Position numbers and translations under genes: made by a program | The notes under the pieces: model-generated | Database searches by the model: none | Told to the model about the DNA's origin: nothing | Seen by the model: the letters and a program-made list of their open reading frames with translations, nothing else | DNA from: a virus | Lineage: Duplodnaviria; Caudoviricetes | Direction: 5' to 3' (one strand) | IMG/VR virus record: IMGVR_UViG_3300009370_000001 | DNA: 64,000 bases | Shown here: one piece after another, positions 1,956-49,305 of the stretch | Numbering within the stretch: the first letter of the stretch is position 1 | Layout of the letters: every line of letters begins with the position of its first letter

Positions 1956-2043
1956 GGCCGAGTGGTGGAATAGGTAGACACACCGGACTTAAAATCCGTT
2001 GATCATTATGATCGTGAGGGTTCAAGTCCCTCCTCGGCTACCA
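1956..2043 (+). tRNA. tRNA-Leu (anticodon TAA)
   Basis: GGCCGAG/CTCGGCT acceptor, CT-TAA-AA loop, long variable arm, GTTCAAGTC T-loop, encoded CCA. Confidence 0.95.
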
Positions 2044-2044
2044 C

Positions 2045-2099
2045 CTTACATCTTCTTGACAACTTTTGGCTTGACCACACAAACTGGGCATGCTATATT
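2045..2099 (+). promoter_or_regulatory. triple-TTGACA promoter element
   Basis: boxes at 2045 (CTTACA), 2056, 2071; TATATT 2094. Confidence 0.8.
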
Positions 2100-2156
2100 A
2101 TGAACACTGACCACATTAACATCTTCACCGACGAAGAAATCAACAAGGAGCTACGG

Positions 2157-2540
2157 ATGGGCACCCGCTCACACATTTATATTGAAACCGAACCAGGAAG
2201 ATTTCTGGGAACTTACTGTCAGTTTGACGGCTATCCTTCCCATATGTTTCCACAACTTGAAAAGCGCAGCCATGACGAAGTATATAGTATTATCGTCAGA
2301 GGACAAACACGCGGTGGCTTGGTAGGCATTGCTGCTACGCCGTCTTCTCCTATTGAATATCAAGATGGAATGGGGGAAGCATCTTTTCTTTTTAATCCGA
2401 CAGACTATCTCGAAAGCACCTGCGTTAACTACGTTTATGTAAAGCGACTGGATGGAACGGTACTATGGCGGGAAACCCGCAACGCTGAACCTGGAATCCC
2501 GATGCCCTGGTATAACACAGCACCCGAGGAGGAAGAATAA
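2157..2540 (+). CDS. phage hypothetical protein (MGTRS...DGYP type)
   Basis: AAGGAG RBS before ATG 2157; start corrected from the track. Confidence 0.65.
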   Translation: MGTRSHIYIETEPGRFLGTYCQFDGYPSHMFPQLEKRSHDEVYSIIVRGQTRGGLVGIAATPSSPIEYQDGMGEASFLFNPTDYLESTCVNYVYVKRLDGTVLWRETRNAEPGIPMPWYNTAPEEEE

Positions 2541-2541
2541 A

Positions 2542-2763
2542 ATGATGTTTGAAGCAGGCGAAAAAGTTATTGTAATGGCAGGCAGTGTTCATTCTCCGTC
2601 CTATCTACAGGGCGAGAGCGGAATGATCCTTGAAGTATCGGGATCATCTGATTATGTACCTGAACATTATACTATTAAGTTTGAGAAAGAGACTCATATT
2701 CTTTATGGGTCCGAACTACGGAGAGAAGAAAGTGAACAAGACGTGACGTATGAACTAAAATAA
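2542..2763 (+). CDS. KOW/SH3-like microprotein
   Basis: FEAGEKV...GMILEV...SELR; GGAGG RBS. Confidence 0.65.
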   Translation: MMFEAGEKVIVMAGSVHSPSYLQGESGMILEVSGSSDYVPEHYTIKFEKETHILYGSELRREESEQDVTYELK

Positions 2764-2769
2764 GTGGTT

Positions 2770-2924
2770 GGCCCCTGGAGTAATACTTAAGGACATTCGG
2801 GTTCAATGTCTACAATGAACCTTGTACCCATCTGGTGAGGTGAAACCTGCGAGGGTAATGCAGGAGTGGAAAGTAGGCTAACGAGTGGAAGACGCGGTGA
2901 AGACAGCGTTCCTCTCCAGGGGCC
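2770..2924 (+). ncRNA. candidate structured ncRNA of unknown family
   Basis: 11-bp closing stem 2770-2780/2914-2924, internal H-type pseudoknot and two hairpins in an intergenic gap. Confidence 0.55.
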
Positions 2925-2969
2925 TTTACATTGATTTGACTTGACAAAGAGAAGAAAATGAGATATATT
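2925..2969 (+). promoter_or_regulatory. sigma70 promoter with extra upstream boxes
   Basis: TTTACA 2925, TTGACT 2936, TTGACA 2941, 17 bp spacer, TATATT 2964. Confidence 0.7.
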
Positions 2970-2975
2970 ATACAT

Positions 2976-3182
2976 ATGAAAAAGGGTGACGTAGTTAAGT
3001 TTGTTTCTCCCCCAGGACTTCACCACTTGGATTCGGTGATGAACTGGAAACAGCAGAGTCCTGGTTTGGTCGTGGGGAGCAAAGACACTTCTCTCAAGAA
3101 GCGGTCTTATGAAGTGCTGTGGAAGAACGGCGAAAGAACTTTTGAATGGGAATCATATTTGGAGATTATTAGTAAAGCATGA
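2976..3182 (+). CDS. KOW/SH3-like microprotein, probably leaderless
   Basis: MKKGDVVK...GLVVG...LEIISKA; ATG 7 nt after the -10. Confidence 0.7.
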   Translation: MKKGDVVKFVSPPGLHHLDSVMNWKQQSPGLVVGSKDTSLKKRSYEVLWKNGERTFEWESYLEIISKA

Positions 3183-3358
3183 TTTATACAGTTATTTATA
3201 CAGATTACAAAAACGATTTGAAGTCCGAGGTAACGGATGGTCCGATGGACCGACCCGAAGCCTGGAAGGAAATGAAACGAGAATACGGCACAGTGCTGGC
3301 AATGGTGCCTGGGAGTCATCCCGTGTATACCAGCGGCTCAATGGAGCGAAAAGATTAG
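3179..3358 (+). CDS. hypothetical protein, 59 aa (below track cutoff)
   Basis: ATGA overlap with upstream stop; MIYTVIYTDYKND... Confidence 0.5.
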   Translation: MIYTVIYTDYKNDLKSEVTDGPMDRPEAWKEMKREYGTVLAMVPGSHPVYTSGSMERKD

Positions 3359-3418
3359 GAGACTGCTTACAGAGCATAAACAGTAAAGCTGGACGCTCAA
3401 AACATTAACCCCTATCCT

Positions 3419-3494
3419 GCGCCGGTAGCTCAGGGGTTAGAGCGTTGTTCTTATAAAGCAAATGTCGGTGGTTCAAGTCCACCCCGGCGTACCA
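3419..3494 (+). tRNA. tRNA-Ile (anticodon TAT)
   Basis: GCGCCGG/CCGGCGT acceptor, TTGTT-CT-TAT-AA-AGCAA anticodon arm, encoded CCA. Confidence 0.92.
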
Positions 3495-3522
3495 TTTTTT
3501 TATGACGAGGATATATACTAAT

Positions 3523-3711
3523 ATGAGCCATCACTATGGAGAATACTGGTCAAGCTGGAGCCACCAGCCTGCCACACCTAAAGAGCCTGAACTGCTTGAA
3601 GAGATTAAAACATTTCTTTTGACTCTCCATGAGAGTGATAAAGCTGCGGAGTTACTCCAAAAAATAGAGGCGGAAGCCGCCAAAGCGAATAAGCCTAAAA
3701 CTGATTTTTAA
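3523..3711 (+). CDS. hypothetical protein
   Basis: ORF track frame; start may be 3502 or 3523. Confidence 0.55.
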   Translation: MSHHYGEYWSSWSHQPATPKEPELLEEIKTFLLTLHESDKAAELLQKIEAEAAKANKPKTDF

Positions 3712-3935
3712 TGTTACCAGAGATTGACTGGCTTGAACACCAAATAGCGCAACTGCGAGAGCGGTGCGATCAGCTTGAGAAAGAAAACTTTGAGCTTAAG
3801 CGATGCATTGGCCGAGCTATCACAAACCTGGAACGAGATAATCAGCAGACCCGAGAATACATTGAGAAAGAAGAAACGAAAATCGTAGCGTTCGCCCCCA
3901 ACTTCAAGAAGCCGAAGTGGGAAACGCAAGATTAA
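3711..3935 (+). CDS. coiled-coil hypothetical protein
   Basis: heptad pattern; TAATG overlap. Confidence 0.6.
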   Translation: MLPEIDWLEHQIAQLRERCDQLEKENFELKRCIGRAITNLERDNQQTREYIEKEETKIVAFAPNFKKPKWETQD

Positions 3936-3946
3936 CCTTTCAATTT

Positions 3947-4022
3947 GGGTCCATAGCTCAATAGGTAGAGCATCGGACTTTTAATCCGCAGGTCGTGGGT
4001 TCGATTCCCACTGGACCCACCA
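3947..4022 (+). tRNA. tRNA-Lys (anticodon TTT)
   Basis: GGGTCCA/TGGACCC acceptor, CT-TTT-AA loop, encoded CCA. Confidence 0.95.
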
Positions 4023-21375: not shown

Positions 21376-22983
21376 ATGAAGAATTTAAAAAAAATTGCCA
21401 TTTTGTGTGCTAGCCTACTAATAAGCTGCAGCGATTATGAGTTAAATCCAAAAGTAGAAGAAATTCCTATTATTGAATCGCCCAATATTGAGGTGACACC
21501 TTCTTCTCTTAATTTTGGACACTTAGATGCCGGCGTGGGCGAGTCCAAAGCCCAAGTCATTACAATTACCAACGTGGGGAACAAAGATCTTAACTTATCC
21601 CATGTTGGCTTAGATGCCGCTGACTTAGTGTATACAATTACACTCCCCCATTTAACGACGCTAGAGCCCGATCAAGCGACTCGTGTGACAGTTACTTATA
21701 TACCGCGCACGTATGAGACGAATTCCAATAGTGTTCTCATTAATTCTAATGACCCTGACGAAGCAGTGGTGAAAGTACCCCTAAGAGGTGAAAGCTCGGC
21801 GCCGGTTATTGAAATCGATCCGACTTATTATGATTTCGGCACAACCTATATTGGATGCGAAGCTAAAACTGTAGTCGGCATTACCAACGTTGGTGATTCT
21901 GATTTAGTGATCACTGACATCCAATATTTTGTTTCTTACCCTCCGGAACTTTCCATTGAAATCGACACCGCCGCCATGGGTCCCTTTCCATGGACATTAG
22001 AACCCAACGAGAGGCAGCTTGTTACTATCTATCATGAACCATGGGACATCCAGGAAGATTCTGGCTTTGTCGAAGTACACTCCAGCGACCCGGCTACGCC
22101 TATAGCTCAAGCCGATCAAGAAGCTATGGGGGATTATTATGCCTGGGCCTCTGACTTTTACGAACAAGAAGAAGTAGCGAATGCCGATATCTTGTTTATA
22201 ATTGATAATTCGTGTTCAATGCACAGCCATCAAACCAATCTTAGTAACAACTTTTCTTCTTTTATAAGTGTCTTTGCTAATTCTGGTGTAGATTATCAAA
22301 TCGCCTTCATTACGACCGATAATGAAAATTTTGTTAATGGAAAGATAATACGCAGTACAGATGCCGATCCCATCGGAGATGTTACGGATATTATCAGCCA
22401 AATTAGCATTACGGGCCATGGTCTTGAGCGAGGATTATGGGAAAGCTATGAAGCCACGCAGGCTGGTGCAGACGCAGGTCCTGGAAGTACCTTTCTTCGA
22501 AATGACTCTCGACTTGTGATGGTTTACCTCTCGGATGAGCGCGACGGTTCCACCACATATTCGTCGATGACACCTACTGATTATGCCAACCATCTCCTGA
22601 CACTGAAACCTTTATCCGATCAATTATCAATTAACGCAGTTGCTGGCGATCATCCGAATGGCTGCAGCCCTCCATACGCCCAGCATGGCGCCGGCTATTA
22701 TGAAGTCGTCCAACAACTGGGAGGAACGTTTATGTCTATTTGTGCTACTGACTATGGATTACAGATGGATACCTTGGCGCGAGATTCAATTTTATTAAGC
22801 GCGTTTGAGCTTTCAGATATTCCCATTGAAGAAAGCATTATTGTAACAGTAGATGGCTACCAGTCGACCAACTGGACCTACAATTCCACCGAGAATGCCA
22901 TTTATTTTGACGCGTCGGCTATTCCTCCTACAGATGCAGAGATTTATATAGATTATGCGGTTTTAGCCGAATGCCCCCAATAA
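21376..22983 (+). CDS. lipoprotein with two ASH/choice-of-anchor D Ig-like domains and a VWA domain
   Basis: lipobox LISC; PSSLNFG...ITNVG...SNDPDE repeats; DILFIIDNSCSM MIDAS. Confidence 0.85.
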   Translation: MKNLKKIAILCASLLISCSDYELNPKVEEIPIIESPNIEVTPSSLNFGHLDAGVGESKAQVITITNVGNKDLNLSHVGLDAADLVYTITLPHLTTLEPDQATRVTVTYIPRTYETNSNSVLINSNDPDEAVVKVPLRGESSAPVIEIDPTYYDFGTTYIGCEAKTVVGITNVGDSDLVITDIQYFVSYPPELSIEIDTAAMGPFPWTLEPNERQLVTIYHEPWDIQEDSGFVEVHSSDPATPIAQADQEAMGDYYAWASDFYEQEEVANADILFIIDNSCSMHSHQTNLSNNFSSFISVFANSGVDYQIAFITTDNENFVNGKIIRSTDADPIGDVTDIISQISITGHGLERGLWESYEATQAGADAGPGSTFLRNDSRLVMVYLSDERDGSTTYSSMTPTDYANHLLTLKPLSDQLSINAVAGDHPNGCSPPYAQHGAGYYEVVQQLGGTFMSICATDYGLQMDTLARDSILLSAFELSDIPIEESIIVTVDGYQSTNWTYNSTENAIYFDASAIPPTDAEIYIDYAVLAECPQ

Positions 22984-23028: not shown

Positions 23029-23757
23029 ATGAAATTTTTAAGTATAGTACTCGGCGCGCTGTTAGTAAGTCCCACTCACGCCACCGAAATCATTAAAACC
23101 CACGATACTGACACCCGGACAATTGAGATAAGTTCGCAGATGTCTGACACTGAAATGGCCGTGCGGGGTGCCGCAGTGCGAGTAACGAGATTTGGAGAAG
23201 GCGGCCATGGCTCGGGTTCCCTGGTGCAGTATAAGGACGTCCAACTTGTTTTGACAGCCCAGCATGTAGCTGACGCCATTATTGGTACACCTTATCGTAT
23301 TACCCATGATGGTGAAATACGCGAAGGTATTTTAATATATTCAAATGAGGCACACGATATTGCAGTTTTATGGGTACAAGTGCCATGGCCACGTGGACAC
23401 GCACTAAAGTGGGATCCCACCACAGAAGTTGCTGAGGTGGGATCAAAAATAACTTATTCGGGCTTTCCCGGGCCACATAGTTTGATGACTTATCGTGGCC
23501 GTGTTGCGGGTTATGAGTTAATGCCTGATGGCTCTACTAACATTTTACTCCACACTTATGGATATTTTGGATGTTCAGGCGCCGTAATTTACAACGCAGA
23601 CAAAGAAATTGTAGGAATCCTATGGGGAATCGATAGAGGGCGTATTGCCCCTATAGAAGATATGATATGGGTATCTCCGATACAGAATTTAAATATTGAT
23701 TTATCATTGCGAGGATTGTGTCAGACATTACGTAATGAACCACGCGCATGCCGATGA
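23029..23757 (+). CDS. exported trypsin-like serine protease
   Basis: signal peptide; TAQH, HDIA, GCSG catalytic triad motifs. Confidence 0.85.
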   Translation: MKFLSIVLGALLVSPTHATEIIKTHDTDTRTIEISSQMSDTEMAVRGAAVRVTRFGEGGHGSGSLVQYKDVQLVLTAQHVADAIIGTPYRITHDGEIREGILIYSNEAHDIAVLWVQVPWPRGHALKWDPTTEVAEVGSKITYSGFPGPHSLMTYRGRVAGYELMPDGSTNILLHTYGYFGCSGAVIYNADKEIVGILWGIDRGRIAPIEDMIWVSPIQNLNIDLSLRGLCQTLRNEPRACR

Positions 23758-24209
23758 AATATTCATGGAAAGGCTTTCTTGGCGAAGGCAAAGAATCAGA
23801 AGTTGGAATTGTTGCTTGTCTAAACGATGAGCAACAATTTCTTATTTTAAGACGTTCAGAGATGGATGATCGAGCAGGGCAATGGACAATGCCGGGAGGA
23901 CATATTGATCCAGAAGACAGTTCTATAGAAGCCGGCACACTTCGAGAATTGAACGAGGAAGCTAATTTAACGTGTAAAATTAGTAATTTAATGTATTTGG
24001 GCTCTCCAAAAAAGAAAAAATACTATTTTTTGGCTCTTAAGTGGTCGGGAGAAGTAAGTGTAGATAAGCCAAATCCAAAAACTGACGAAATTGAACACGA
24101 TGACTACAAATGGGCAACAATTAATGAGATAAAAGACATTGACGATACTAATATTCCGATCTATTTACTGGAGAAAGCTTTAGAAATCCAAAAGGAAGGT
24201 GAAGAATGA
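23754..24209 (+). CDS. Nudix hydrolase with degenerate tag (MKYSWKGFLGE)
   Basis: Nudix box GGHIDPEDSSIEAGTLRELNEEANL. Confidence 0.9.
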   Translation: MKYSWKGFLGEGKESEVGIVACLNDEQQFLILRRSEMDDRAGQWTMPGGHIDPEDSSIEAGTLRELNEEANLTCKISNLMYLGSPKKKKYYFLALKWSGEVSVDKPNPKTDEIEHDDYKWATINEIKDIDDTNIPIYLLEKALEIQKEGEE

Positions 24210-24463
24210 GGTTTTTAACACTATTTTTGATGTTCTCGACCACTGCGATGGCAGACACGCCAGAAGAACCAACAAACGAGCGACAAATCGTTTACAAACA
24301 ACGCACAGAAATTGACTTTGAAGGTCTTGAAATCGAGGGAACACTCGTTCGACCTCAAGGCGCCCTAATCTTAGACAGAACGGCTGGATCATTTAATCCT
24401 CTTATCCGTTTAAGAATGGATTTCGAGCCAGAATTAAACAACTCGGTGAATTACATAAAATGA
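24206..24463 (+). CDS. cglF: adventurous gliding motility protein CglF/GltF-like
   Basis: signal peptide plus VYKQRTEIDFEGLEIEGTLVRPQG...FNPLIRLRMDFEPEL, matching the recalled CglF pattern. Confidence 0.75.
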   Translation: MRFLTLFLMFSTTAMADTPEEPTNERQIVYKQRTEIDFEGLEIEGTLVRPQGALILDRTAGSFNPLIRLRMDFEPELNNSVNYIK

Positions 24464-24557
24464 AAACTCTCGATAAAGCTTTAGAAGAACTTTCAGCCGC
24501 AGAACTGGCGGAATACGAAGAAGTCATCGAACTTTGGATTACATATGGTGGCGACTG

Positions 24558-25052
24558 ATGAAACTTATAATGGAAAATTGGCGGCGTTATTTAACAGAAC
24601 AAGAAGCTTCTTGGGGAGACTGGACAATTGAAGAACTCGAAGACTTAATTAAAAATGCTCGTGAAGAAGAGAATGTACAAGCCAAAAAATGGCTTGGGAA
24701 AACAATGGGTATTGAATTTATAAAACTCATTCCTGTTCTTGGTCACGCATTAACTGGAGGTGAGGTCTTGAGCGGTCTTTATAAGAAGCACAAGCGATCT
24801 GAGGCAGAATCCGATGATAATCCTGAAGATTTTCCAATTTTAGATATTTTAGACGTCGATCCTTATCTTATTCAAACACTCGATCAAGAAATTTTAAATA
24901 GTATTGATGAAGAATATGAAAAATATTTACATGGCTTGCCGGCCGGAACGCGCATAAAAGACATCACCGATATTAATGATTTTATTCGAGGAATCGTTGC
25001 GCGCCAAACGAAGAAGCATGTTACCATTGTTGATCAAAGCGGAGAAGGTTAA
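24558..25052 (+). CDS. tagged hypothetical protein (MKLIMENWRRYLTE)
   Basis: tag motif at the start; start corrected from the track. Confidence 0.7.
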   Translation: MKLIMENWRRYLTEQEASWGDWTIEELEDLIKNAREEENVQAKKWLGKTMGIEFIKLIPVLGHALTGGEVLSGLYKKHKRSEAESDDNPEDFPILDILDVDPYLIQTLDQEILNSIDEEYEKYLHGLPAGTRIKDITDINDFIRGIVARQTKKHVTIVDQSGEG

Positions 25053-47123: not shown

Positions 47124-47179
47124 TAATGAGGAGCCACCATTCCGTTGCCCTTGCTGCGGTTTTGCTCCTTGCGACTGCG

Positions 47180-48076
47180 ATGACCATTAAAAAGATAAAA
47201 TTACTACTTTTAACAGCTTTAATAGTGCTCGGTTGCCAGCCAGATTATGGTATGCAGTACGAGGTGATAGAAGAGATCCAGCCAACTGAGGTAGTTGTAG
47301 ATTCGTTCGTACAACCAAGCCCTCCGACCAAATTAGATGTATTGATTGTGCTTGATACTTCGGGTTCAATGAACGATAATTTTCAACAAGTAAGCACAGG
47401 AGTGGAGTTGTTGCGCGGAGATATCGAAGCCCTAACACTTGATTATAAAATTGGCTTTATAAACTCAGGATTGGTCAGTCCGTATTTTGCTGGTCCTTAT
47501 GACTATAATTCGGATTCTATTGATTTTTTGTTGGCCCCTTATATATTGGGCGCTGATTGGTACGAAAGAGCGTTCCAGACAATGCATGGGTTCGTCTCAA
47601 GCACACCTGAAGGCATCGCATTCTTTCGAGATGATGCAGACAAATTAATTATTTTTGTTTCTGATGAAGACGAGCAAGGAGCCATCCCAACAAATACTTT
47701 TCATGATTGGCTTGTAGACAAGTTTAAAGGAGTGCAACATGACGTAGTGGCCATTGTGCAAGTTGAAGATGGTGAATGCGCAAGCACTTGGCAATATGAT
47801 GTAGGTCAGAAATTTATTGATTTAGTAGCTTATTATGGAAAAGTGGGAATTGACATTTGCAGCGATTGGGAAGCGTGGCTAGCCGACAGCACATTTTTAG
47901 TAGGTGAGATTAATTATATAAACCTCACTCAAAAACCACTCGAAGACAGCCTTGTAGTTTATAGAAACGGTCTGGAAACCGCACTATGGTATTATTTGCC
48001 TAGTACTAACACGGTATATTTAGACTTTGTGCCGGATCCGGGAGAACTCATTGAAGTAGGATATGTTGTTTTATAA
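47180..48076 (+). CDS. VWA-domain lipoprotein
   Basis: lipobox VLGC; DVLIVLDTSGSM; FVSDEDEQ; paralog of the C-terminal half of 21376. Confidence 0.82.
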   Translation: MTIKKIKLLLLTALIVLGCQPDYGMQYEVIEEIQPTEVVVDSFVQPSPPTKLDVLIVLDTSGSMNDNFQQVSTGVELLRGDIEALTLDYKIGFINSGLVSPYFAGPYDYNSDSIDFLLAPYILGADWYERAFQTMHGFVSSTPEGIAFFRDDADKLIIFVSDEDEQGAIPTNTFHDWLVDKFKGVQHDVVAIVQVEDGECASTWQYDVGQKFIDLVAYYGKVGIDICSDWEAWLADSTFLVGEINYINLTQKPLEDSLVVYRNGLETALWYYLPSTNTVYLDFVPDPGELIEVGYVVL

Positions 48077-49229: not shown

Positions 49230-49305
49230 TGGGGTGTAGTTCAATCGGCAGAACGTCTGACTGTTAATCAGAAAGTTGCAGGTTCGAGTCCTGCTGCCCC
49301 AGCCA
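49230..49305 (+). tRNA. tRNA-Asn (anticodon GTT)
   Basis: TGGGGTG/TGCCCCA acceptor, TCTGA-CT-GTT-AA-TCAGA, G discriminator, encoded CCA. Confidence 0.93.

Follow-up and report, generated by a model that had tools for sequence, protein, structure and literature searches.

A 64,000-nucleotide (64-kb) stretch of viral DNA (IMG/VR record IMGVR_UViG_3300009370_000001, class Caudoviricetes; hereafter the window) encodes an 85-amino-acid (aa) protein that is, judged by its sequence, a member of the GltF/CglF family of the Agl-Glt gliding machinery. A sequence-only reading of the locus had proposed an exported protein of this length and had matched it to the pattern of CglF. The open reading frame (ORF) is exactly as proposed and begins with a signal peptide pattern, and the proposed likeness is borne out by the NCBIfam profile NF033764 (gliding_CglF), which matches the phage protein with an E value of 1.2e-11 and 44.5 bits. 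The similarity is thus both significant and full-length, since the alignment runs over profile positions 8-86 of 88 and residues 6-82 of the protein. Pfam and PHROGs gave no match for the 85-aa protein.

The gltF gene and its cellular relatives

The score of 44.5 bits lies below the equivalog cut-off of NF033764, which is set at 90 bits. As a cellular yardstick, 151 genomes from the phylum of one Myxococcota metagenome-assembled genome (MAG) were scanned, plus 14 control genomes: the profile matches in 113 of the 151 genomes and in none of the 14 controls, exceeds 90 bits in only 3 of the 113, and gives 45-59 bits for the copies that lie inside glt operons. Because the other 110 matching Myxococcota genomes and the operon-borne copies also score below 90 bits, the cut-off sets the close Myxococcus relatives apart and does not mark the edge of the family. 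Many Myxococcota genomes hold 2-3 CglF-family copies each. The phage protein is 60% identical to the nearest cellular GltF (P0098, from a marine MAG titled 'Myxococcota bacterium') overall and 72% identical over residues 26-85, and shares 32-43% identity with the copies above the CglF cut-off. Thirteen residues (Y30, T34, D37, F38, G45, P50, F63, N64, P65, I67, R70, E76, and S80) are invariant in all phage and cellular sequences compared.

Read by eye, the N-terminus (MRFLTLFLMFSTTAMA, followed after the predicted cut by DT) combines charge, a hydrophobic core, and an A-x-A motif in the pattern of a type I (Sec-type) signal peptide, and the alignment shows that hydrophobic N-termini ending in A-x-A are common to all of the phage and cellular homologs. 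The mature protein would comprise 69 residues and is acidic. The start codon and frame are preserved in 15 phage orthologs, and the gene is tightly packed at both ends, its ATG overlapping the stop of the upstream NUDIX gene and its stop overlapping the ATG of a 32-aa ORF (ATGA in both cases). Sigma-70-like promoters, terminators, and the T4 late motif TATAAATA showed no enrichment near gltF.

The nearest cellular copy, P0098, lies between gltE and gltG in a true glt operon, on a 91-kb contig with ribosomal protein L3 and IMPDH alongside. NCBIfam matches in this cluster comprise OMP_myx_plus (twice), GltC (233 bits), GltE (170), CglF (46.6), GltG (324), and CglE/GltH (99 bits, above its own cut-off). 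The same arrangement holds across 86 cellular loci, where the order gltA-B-C-D-E-F-G-H followed by an Ig-like gene is fixed, most loci have the whole gltA-H set, and gltG stands directly downstream of gltF in 84 of the 86. The nfsA-H operon of Myxococcus xanthus has the same A-to-H gene order (PMC3169522). No second glt gene is present in the 64-kb window or in 15 phage loci (+/-10 kb); unlike the operon-bound cellular copies, the phage gltF is therefore a solitary gene.

A tree was built on 62 conserved residues with a cellular set picked by likeness to the query; the short alignment and this choice of sequences mean that the number and direction of transfers are not fixed by it. Within these bounds, 75 cellular primary copies form a supported clade with no phage member (99/99), the phage sequences branch around the base of that clade, the window sequence falls within a supported group of seven phage sequences (98/80), and true CglF and the tandem second paralogs are distant from the phage group. 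In one phage subgroup (L005-L008 and L013), identity to the GltF of MAGs L032, L047, and L067 amounts to 80-83% and rises to 88-100% over the last 16 residues, suggesting that the subgroup has either exchanged gltF with that lineage or tracked it.

Two further observations concern the cellular clusters themselves. Many Myxococcota MAG clusters carry a second, far more divergent GltF-like gene upstream of gltF (L027, L029, L030, L036-L038, L046, L059, L072, L077, L085, L092, and L093), at a distance of ~300-600 bp in most loci and ~1.8 kb in L085, and this gene seems to be without description in the literature consulted. In addition, several MAGs with complete myxobacterial gltA-H operons bear the titles 'Enterobacterales', 'Klebsiella pneumoniae', 'Alphaproteobacteria', or 'Rhodobacterales' (L021, L022, L025, L026, L062, L085, L098, and others) and look mislabelled.

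Phage context, selection, and neighbouring genes

The large ORFs of the window all lie on one strand and are accompanied by four tRNAs, a transfer-messenger RNA (tmRNA), PhoH, an exonuclease, and many glycosyltransferases; the window ORFs scanned against family libraries include neither ribosomal genes nor genes of core housekeeping. The sequencing runs that contain this DNA are marine metagenomes, four of which may be the source samples, with no RNA run listed. Contigs of ~202.5-203.7 kb from several samples carry the exact protein; the starting point of one of them, 202.5 kb long, appears to differ from that of the window's source, which fits a circular or circularly permuted phage genome. 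IMG/VR orthologs that are 85-95% identical keep the same order of lipoprotein, protease, NUDIX, and gltF genes, and a profile scan of IMG/VR found 112 contigs encoding a GltF relative, as intact full-length ORFs at 44-95% identity.

Six GltF-bearing viral records (G003, G166, G169, G171, G172, and G173) hold the T4-type capsid gene gp23 on the same contig as gltF (PF07068, 198-219 bits), and four of these records are 196-289 kb long and 77-100% complete by CheckV. In this phage group, gp23 encodes capsid proteins of unusual length (587-677 aa; for example, L105:4949-6913 in G003) that are very diverse in marine metagenomes, with 8000 relatives at E < 1e-20. Several other GltF-bearing viral contigs gave no match to gp23 or portal, but these are fragments estimated to be 7-50% complete, so this is not evidence of absence. 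The near-complete record G170 (the record of L179; 316,664 bp, 94% complete) likewise gave no gp23 match, and G163 (the record of L003) is classed by IMG/VR as a provirus; both may represent another virus type or include host DNA. A gp23 protein from the same sampling project (P0419) was considered as the capsid gene of the window's own genome and set aside, a same-contig link not being established. Phage-type GltF also occurs in MAGs titled 'Flavobacteriales' and 'Pacearchaeota', bins that are contaminated by phage; the latter contains T4 gp23 as well.

Pairwise dN/dS among the phage orthologs, taken where dS is unsaturated, is 0.04-0.21, which denotes purifying selection. The base composition of the gene is that of a phage: gltF has 41.5% GC and 39.5% GC at third codon positions, its surroundings have 43% GC, and the corresponding medians for cellular gltF are 59.6% and 86%. 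A recent capture or an assembly chimera would differ in this respect, and gltF is therefore an old resident. From its conservation and the selection acting on it, the gene looks to be a working one in these phages.

Features of the window, with the evidence for each
Feature	Position	Strand	Basis and remarks
gltF/cglF-like gene, 85 aa (P0001)	24206..24463, stop included	+	ORF, ATG to TGA; NF033764 match
Shine-Dalgarno-like AGGAAGGTGA	24193..24202	+	3 nt 5' of the gltF ATG; read from sequence
Predicted signal peptide, residues 1-16, MRFLTLFLMFSTTAMA	24206..24253	+	Predicted cut after A-M-A; read from sequence
Conserved core, residues 26-52, RQIVYKQRTEIDFEGLEIEGTLVRPQG	24281..24361	+	Invariant Y30, T34, D37, F38, G45, P50
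Predicted C-terminal helix, residues 71-84, MDFEPELNNSVNYI	24416..24457	+	AlphaFold2 monomer; invariant E76, S80; near-invariant F73
NUDIX hydrolase gene	23748..24209	+	Pfam NUDIX, 1.8e-17; stop overlaps gltF start
32-aa ORF	24460..24558	+	ATG overlaps gltF stop; called in all ten places carrying P0001
Secreted trypsin-like serine protease	23029..23757	+	Pfam Trypsin_2, 2.6e-11; module-conserved in 7 phage loci
535-aa lipoprotein	21376..22983	+	Ig-like (choice-of-anchor D/HYDIN) repeats and VWA-like domain; DxSxS MIDAS (DNSCS)
316-aa lipoprotein (P0269)	47126..48076	+	Beta-integrin-like VWA domain; DTSGS MIDAS motif
Phage tmRNA, tag ANNNNNFESVRLAA	41159..41580	+	ARAGORN; tag begins ANNNNNF
Four tRNAs: Leu-TAA, Ile-TAT, Lys-TTT, Asn-GTT	1956-4022 and 49230-49305

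Overlapping or abutting starts and stops chain the NUDIX gene, gltF, the 32-aa ORF, and a 164-aa gene starting MKLIMENW, which abuts the 32-aa ORF directly, over positions 23748-25052. The NUDIX gene stands directly before gltF in L001, L002, and L015, and belongs to the same module in L005-L008; the lipoprotein, protease, and NUDIX genes travel loosely with gltF. The 535-aa lipoprotein, which lies near gltF in 8 of the 15 phage loci, has Pfam and NCBIfam hits and locally resembles CglD (1.4e-8) as well as the MIDAS adhesin of Bdellovibrio (2.6e-10). Its possible co-capture with gltF, as a counterpart of the Ig-like protein that ends the cellular glt operon, was rejected: the likeness is one of generic Ig repeats, at 23% identity.

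The second VWA lipoprotein, P0269, gave an AlphaFold2 (AF2) model with a predicted local distance difference test (pLDDT) score of 83.5, for which the best fold matches are integrin beta chains (E ~1e-9). A beta-integrin-like VWA module is also known from CglD, an adhesin of the Glt machine (bioRxiv 10.1101/2023.10.19.562135). The distant GltF-bearing phage G003 has five ORFs in common with the window, among them gltF and both VWA lipoproteins, the genes for which lie side by side in G003, 38 kb from its gltF. Further along the window, a surface-glycan gene set begins at ~54227, fills the sequence to 63998, and runs on for ~10 kb past the window (L103:1-20648); it includes several glycosyltransferases, a sialyltransferase-like GT29 enzyme, a CMP-sugar synthetase (CTP_transf_3), two NeuB proteins, epimerases, dehydrogenases, and methyltransferases, and looks like a phage-borne pathway for nonulosonic (sialic-like) acid.

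Host assignment and predicted docking

Four lines of evidence point to marine Myxococcota as the host. The best 80 cellular relatives all carry the glt operon and are Myxococcota by title or by membership of the phylum sample, the GenBank titles 'Enterobacterales' and 'Klebsiella pneumoniae' among them being plainly wrong labels. In the literature, gltF is confined to Myxococcales and Bdellovibrionales (PMC3169522), and a linker would be of use only in cells that have its partners. Over its first seven residues, the phage tmRNA tag agrees with those of the MAGs whose GltF is nearest (ANNNNNFALAA, ANNNNAFAIAA, and ANNNEGFALAA), a comparison made within that phylum; the rest of the phage tmRNA is divergent apart from its tRNA-like ends. 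Relatives of the VWA lipoproteins occur in 34 of the 151 Myxococcota-phylum genomes, with up to 14 matches per genome.

The phage has 43% GC, against 52-70% in most candidate hosts, with a few marine MAG loci at 43-46%. Its tRNAs read the codons TTA, ATA, AAA, and AAY, three of them A-ending, as is commonly the case in AT-rich phages that infect GC-rich hosts; this combination fits a host of higher GC. The sequence-only reading had likewise named a member of the Myxococcota; the assignment, though provisional, agrees with the nearest homologs, with the tag of the tmRNA, and with the family of VWA lipoproteins. Bdellovibrionota are a minority alternative; the one MAG labelled 'Oligoflexia' shares its phylum sample with the Myxococcota MAGs.

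In M. xanthus, GltF is needed for gliding, localises to focal adhesions, and is needed for the formation of GltD clusters there (PMC3169522). A structural model has GltF bridging GltC to GltG and GltD, with a beta-strand added to the TonB-like C-terminal domain (CTD) of GltG and a C-terminal helix in a crevice of GltC (PMC11761067). The protein has alternatively been termed 'OM(-associated)', that is, associated with the outer membrane (OM) (bioRxiv 10.1101/2023.10.19.562135). The earlier placement of GltF in the outer-membrane part of the machine accordingly calls for one refinement: the protein is part of Agl-Glt but is a periplasmic linker between GltC and GltG/GltD, not an integral outer-membrane component (PMC11761067, PMC3169522).

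The AF2 monomer of the phage protein has helices at residues 53-58 and 71-84, the remainder being unstructured, which agrees with what has been described for M. xanthus GltF, a disordered linker whose C-terminal part forms a helix (PMC11761067). When the GltG-pairing strand is placed on the phage core by residue offset from the published 147-residue GltF numbering, phage residues 26-52 appear to overlap the strand modelled to pair with the GltG CTD, and the predicted phage helix 71-84 corresponds to the helix modelled in the GltC crevice. A complex prediction for mature phage GltF with the GltG CTD of the nearest MAG (locus L016) scored 0.40 (0.42, 0.40, and 0.40 in the individual runs; 0.00 for the best of 3 controls), with contacts agreeing at 84% or more among runs and a partner pLDDT of at least 50; this lends the pairing weak support. 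Of 80 solved complexes, 58 attained the mark for such a score, as did 2 of 110 mismatched pairs, counts that are rough owing to custom alignments; at scores of 0.60 or below, only 7 of the 80 solved complexes passed, along with both mismatched pairs. From the conserved segments and these models, it is most likely that the phage peptide, once exported, binds at the sites used by host GltF.

Possible effects on the host machine and comparison with known systems

Tentatively, and with somewhat less than even confidence, we propose that this is a working phage gene of the GltF/CglF family, taken long ago from a Myxococcota lineage and now standing alone in marine T4-like phages, whose product docks on the Glt machine in a stand-in role. 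The 85-aa precursor would be exported by Sec during infection and cleaved to a peptide of ~69 aa, the conserved beta-segment of which would pair with the TonB-like CTD of GltG and the C-terminal helix of which would occupy GltC. After the shutdown of host gene expression, the phage copy would take the place of the short-lived linker of the host and thereby keep the inner-membrane motor coupled to the outer-membrane platform. As for the direction of the effect, sustaining or re-tuning the machine is slightly favoured, and could well be wrong; jamming it is a credible second choice, and some other effect is the least probable of the three. The stand-in role is favoured by conservation along the full length, by the fact that neither interface has been lost, by known auxiliary genes that supply single subunits, and by the closeness of the L005-L008/L013 subgroup to the GltF of L032, L047, and L067; the carriage of the linker alone, together with the window-clade changes E46T/A, K49R, and M77L, favours jamming.

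Several considerations weigh against this proposal. The model assumes rapid turnover of GltF, and a linker carried alone, from a machine of many parts (gltA-H), also fits poisoning by excess adaptor. In planktonic marine Myxococcota, the machine may serve gliding, Nfs-like coat assembly, or another function (PMC3169522). The partners named above are no firmer than the host assignment from which they follow, and the result of the complex prediction may reflect likeness alone, given that the MAG which supplied the GltG domain has a GltF sharing 60% identity with the phage protein. Hallmark genes of the window's own ~203-kb genome were not seen, the structural genes lying outside the window. Finally, the window clade differs at E46 (T or A) and M77 (L), both unvarying in 86 cellular sequences, and has R in place of K49, a residue found in 99% of the cellular sequences; E46 is changed in 8 of 16 phage sequences and in none of the 86 cellular ones, although these changes represent few independent events.

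The same docking could also have the opposite effect, with phage GltF acting as a competitive mimic that uncouples the machine, an explanation that we regard as possible though doubtful. An excess of the peptide might saturate GltG and GltC separately, in the manner of an adaptor 'prozone', or bind unproductively, such that the motor no longer drives the outer-membrane platform. Gliding or adhesion would then stop, or an adhesin or receptor would be kept masked, leading to superinfection exclusion or to fewer progeny lost on debris; the sequence-only reading had likewise suggested that the phage may alter motility or mask a receptor. Carriage of the linker without other glt genes is in keeping with such a mimic, as are the few independent changes at positions that vary rarely or never among the cellular sequences. 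Two findings from M. xanthus also lend themselves to it, namely that GltF is needed for GltD assembly at focal adhesions (PMC3169522) and that the adhesin CglB is held masked by the outer-membrane platform until engaged (bioRxiv 10.1101/2023.10.19.562135). On the other hand, both interaction segments and the invariant residues are kept under strong purifying selection, whereas a classical dominant-negative protein would usually lose one interface; E46 is kept in the other phage subgroups, and K49 and M77 in most of them; and there is no sign that the phage uses Glt parts as a receptor.

It is unlikely, in our estimate, that the GltF-like segments serve another end, such as tapping the TonB-like GltG/AglRQS motor for a phage process (envelope remodelling or the display of the phage VWA lipoproteins) or acting as a decoy against a host response that senses the machine. 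That distant GltF phages share few genes with the window and that these few include both VWA/MIDAS lipoproteins speaks for this idea, as do the frequent proximity of the 535-aa lipoprotein to gltF and the large glycan and nonulosonic-acid gene sets, which suggest envelope remodelling; direct support is absent, the VWA family is multi-copy in Myxococcota and not tied to glt clusters there, and the linkage in the phages is loose, as the 38-kb separation in G003 illustrates. Still less probable is a virus-encoded adhesion and motility takeover set, in which GltF and the two VWA/MIDAS lipoproteins together would re-tool the focal-adhesion machine. This proposal draws on the resemblance of the phage VWA lipoproteins to the VWA module of CglD, a likeness that may not extend to function. 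Were it true, an infected cell might change its attachment or movement (for example, by being held on particles or on neighbouring hosts, aiding transmission), or a receptor might be masked.

A cellular origin of the contig, which would then be either part of the genome of a myxobacterial cell or an assembly chimera misread as phage, is hardly credible: close homologs in GenBank MAGs labelled as bacteria or archaea and the single provirus flag could be read that way, but the one-strand 64 kb with tRNAs, tmRNA, and PhoH, the recurrence of the ~203-kb contigs across samples, the IMG/VR orthologs, the six related contigs with gp23, the phage contamination of the 'Pacearchaeota' MAG, a GC content that matches the surroundings, the missing glt neighbours, and the lack of housekeeping genes among the ORFs scanned all argue for a viral one. 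Least credible of all is a decaying passenger gene without function, since gltF, albeit in a variable accessory region, is intact in all 112 viral contigs, evolves under constraint, keeps every invariant residue, and has fully adopted the base composition of the phage.

The GltF family itself is known; its phage-borne, stand-alone form is new to the searchable literature. A search by tblastn of 50,697 GenBank phage records found no homolog of P0001, nor any of a neighbouring 866-aa protein, and 10 kb of the window found no match among GenBank phages by megablast. Full-text literature searches yielded no report of GltF/CglF or Agl-Glt in phages, and none came from a 2026 preprint that surveys the auxiliary genes of myxophages. 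The earlier remark that no phage motility gene of this kind had been described thus agrees with both the GenBank phage records and the papers found. Among components of the Agl-Glt/Nfs family of envelope-spanning machines, this would be the first known to be encoded by a virus. It offers a testable host assignment, to marine Myxococcota, for widespread uncultured T4-like marine phages of ~200-290 kb that have no cultured relative in the GenBank phage records. Moreover, GltF is the least understood part of the machine, and the more than 100 phage variants, under selection either to fit or to jam their host partners, amount to a natural mutational scan of the two proposed interfaces. By implication, the compact gltA-H machine would matter to marine Myxococcota, whether planktonic or attached to particles, sufficiently to have become a target of phages.

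Among known systems, the closest described counterpart is M. xanthus GltF, which is the same as CglF (MXAN_4868; NF033764). The two proteins are similar in length (89 versus 85 aa), begin with a signal peptide, lack a Pfam domain, and are largely disordered with a C-terminal helix, and they have in common the motifs Y-K-x-x-T-E-x-D-F, G-x-L-x-x-P, and F-N-P-L-I-x-L-R-x-x-F-x-x-E (PMC3169522, PMC11761067). They differ in that the phage gene stands alone and has AT-rich codon usage, whereas the M. xanthus type sits between gltE and gltG; a gliding role is known for the M. xanthus protein and would be conjectural for that of the phage. The nearest relatives of the phage protein are the GltF proteins of gltA-H operons in uncultured, largely marine or freshwater Myxococcota (L016 and L020, both XS_MAG130, and L032, L047, and L067), where, in contrast to the solitary phage gene, gltF is always in an operon and often accompanied by a second tandem paralog. 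The spore-coat machine Nfs of M. xanthus (nfsA-H), with its NfsF-type paralogs, and further Glt-like clusters of that species belong to the same machine family, and the nearest cellular operons may function in gliding, coat assembly, or another process.

Outside this family, the stand-in role has a parallel in cyanophage psbA (D1) and pstS (the periplasmic phosphate-binding protein), phage genes that supply one component of a host machine. Like phage gltF, these encode a single host-derived subunit that is under purifying selection in marine T4-like phages and must fit host partners; unlike it, they serve metabolism or nutrient uptake, whereas phage gltF would target a motility, adhesion, or envelope machine, perhaps to inhibit it. 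For an inhibitory effect, the comparison lies with phages that silence host surface machines or receptors, as they often do, for example through T5 Llp acting on FhuA or through phage inhibitors of type IV pili. These too are small exported or envelope-targeted phage proteins that act on a surface machine of the host, but they are not homologs of subunits of the machine that they block, whereas phage GltF is a faithful copy of one.

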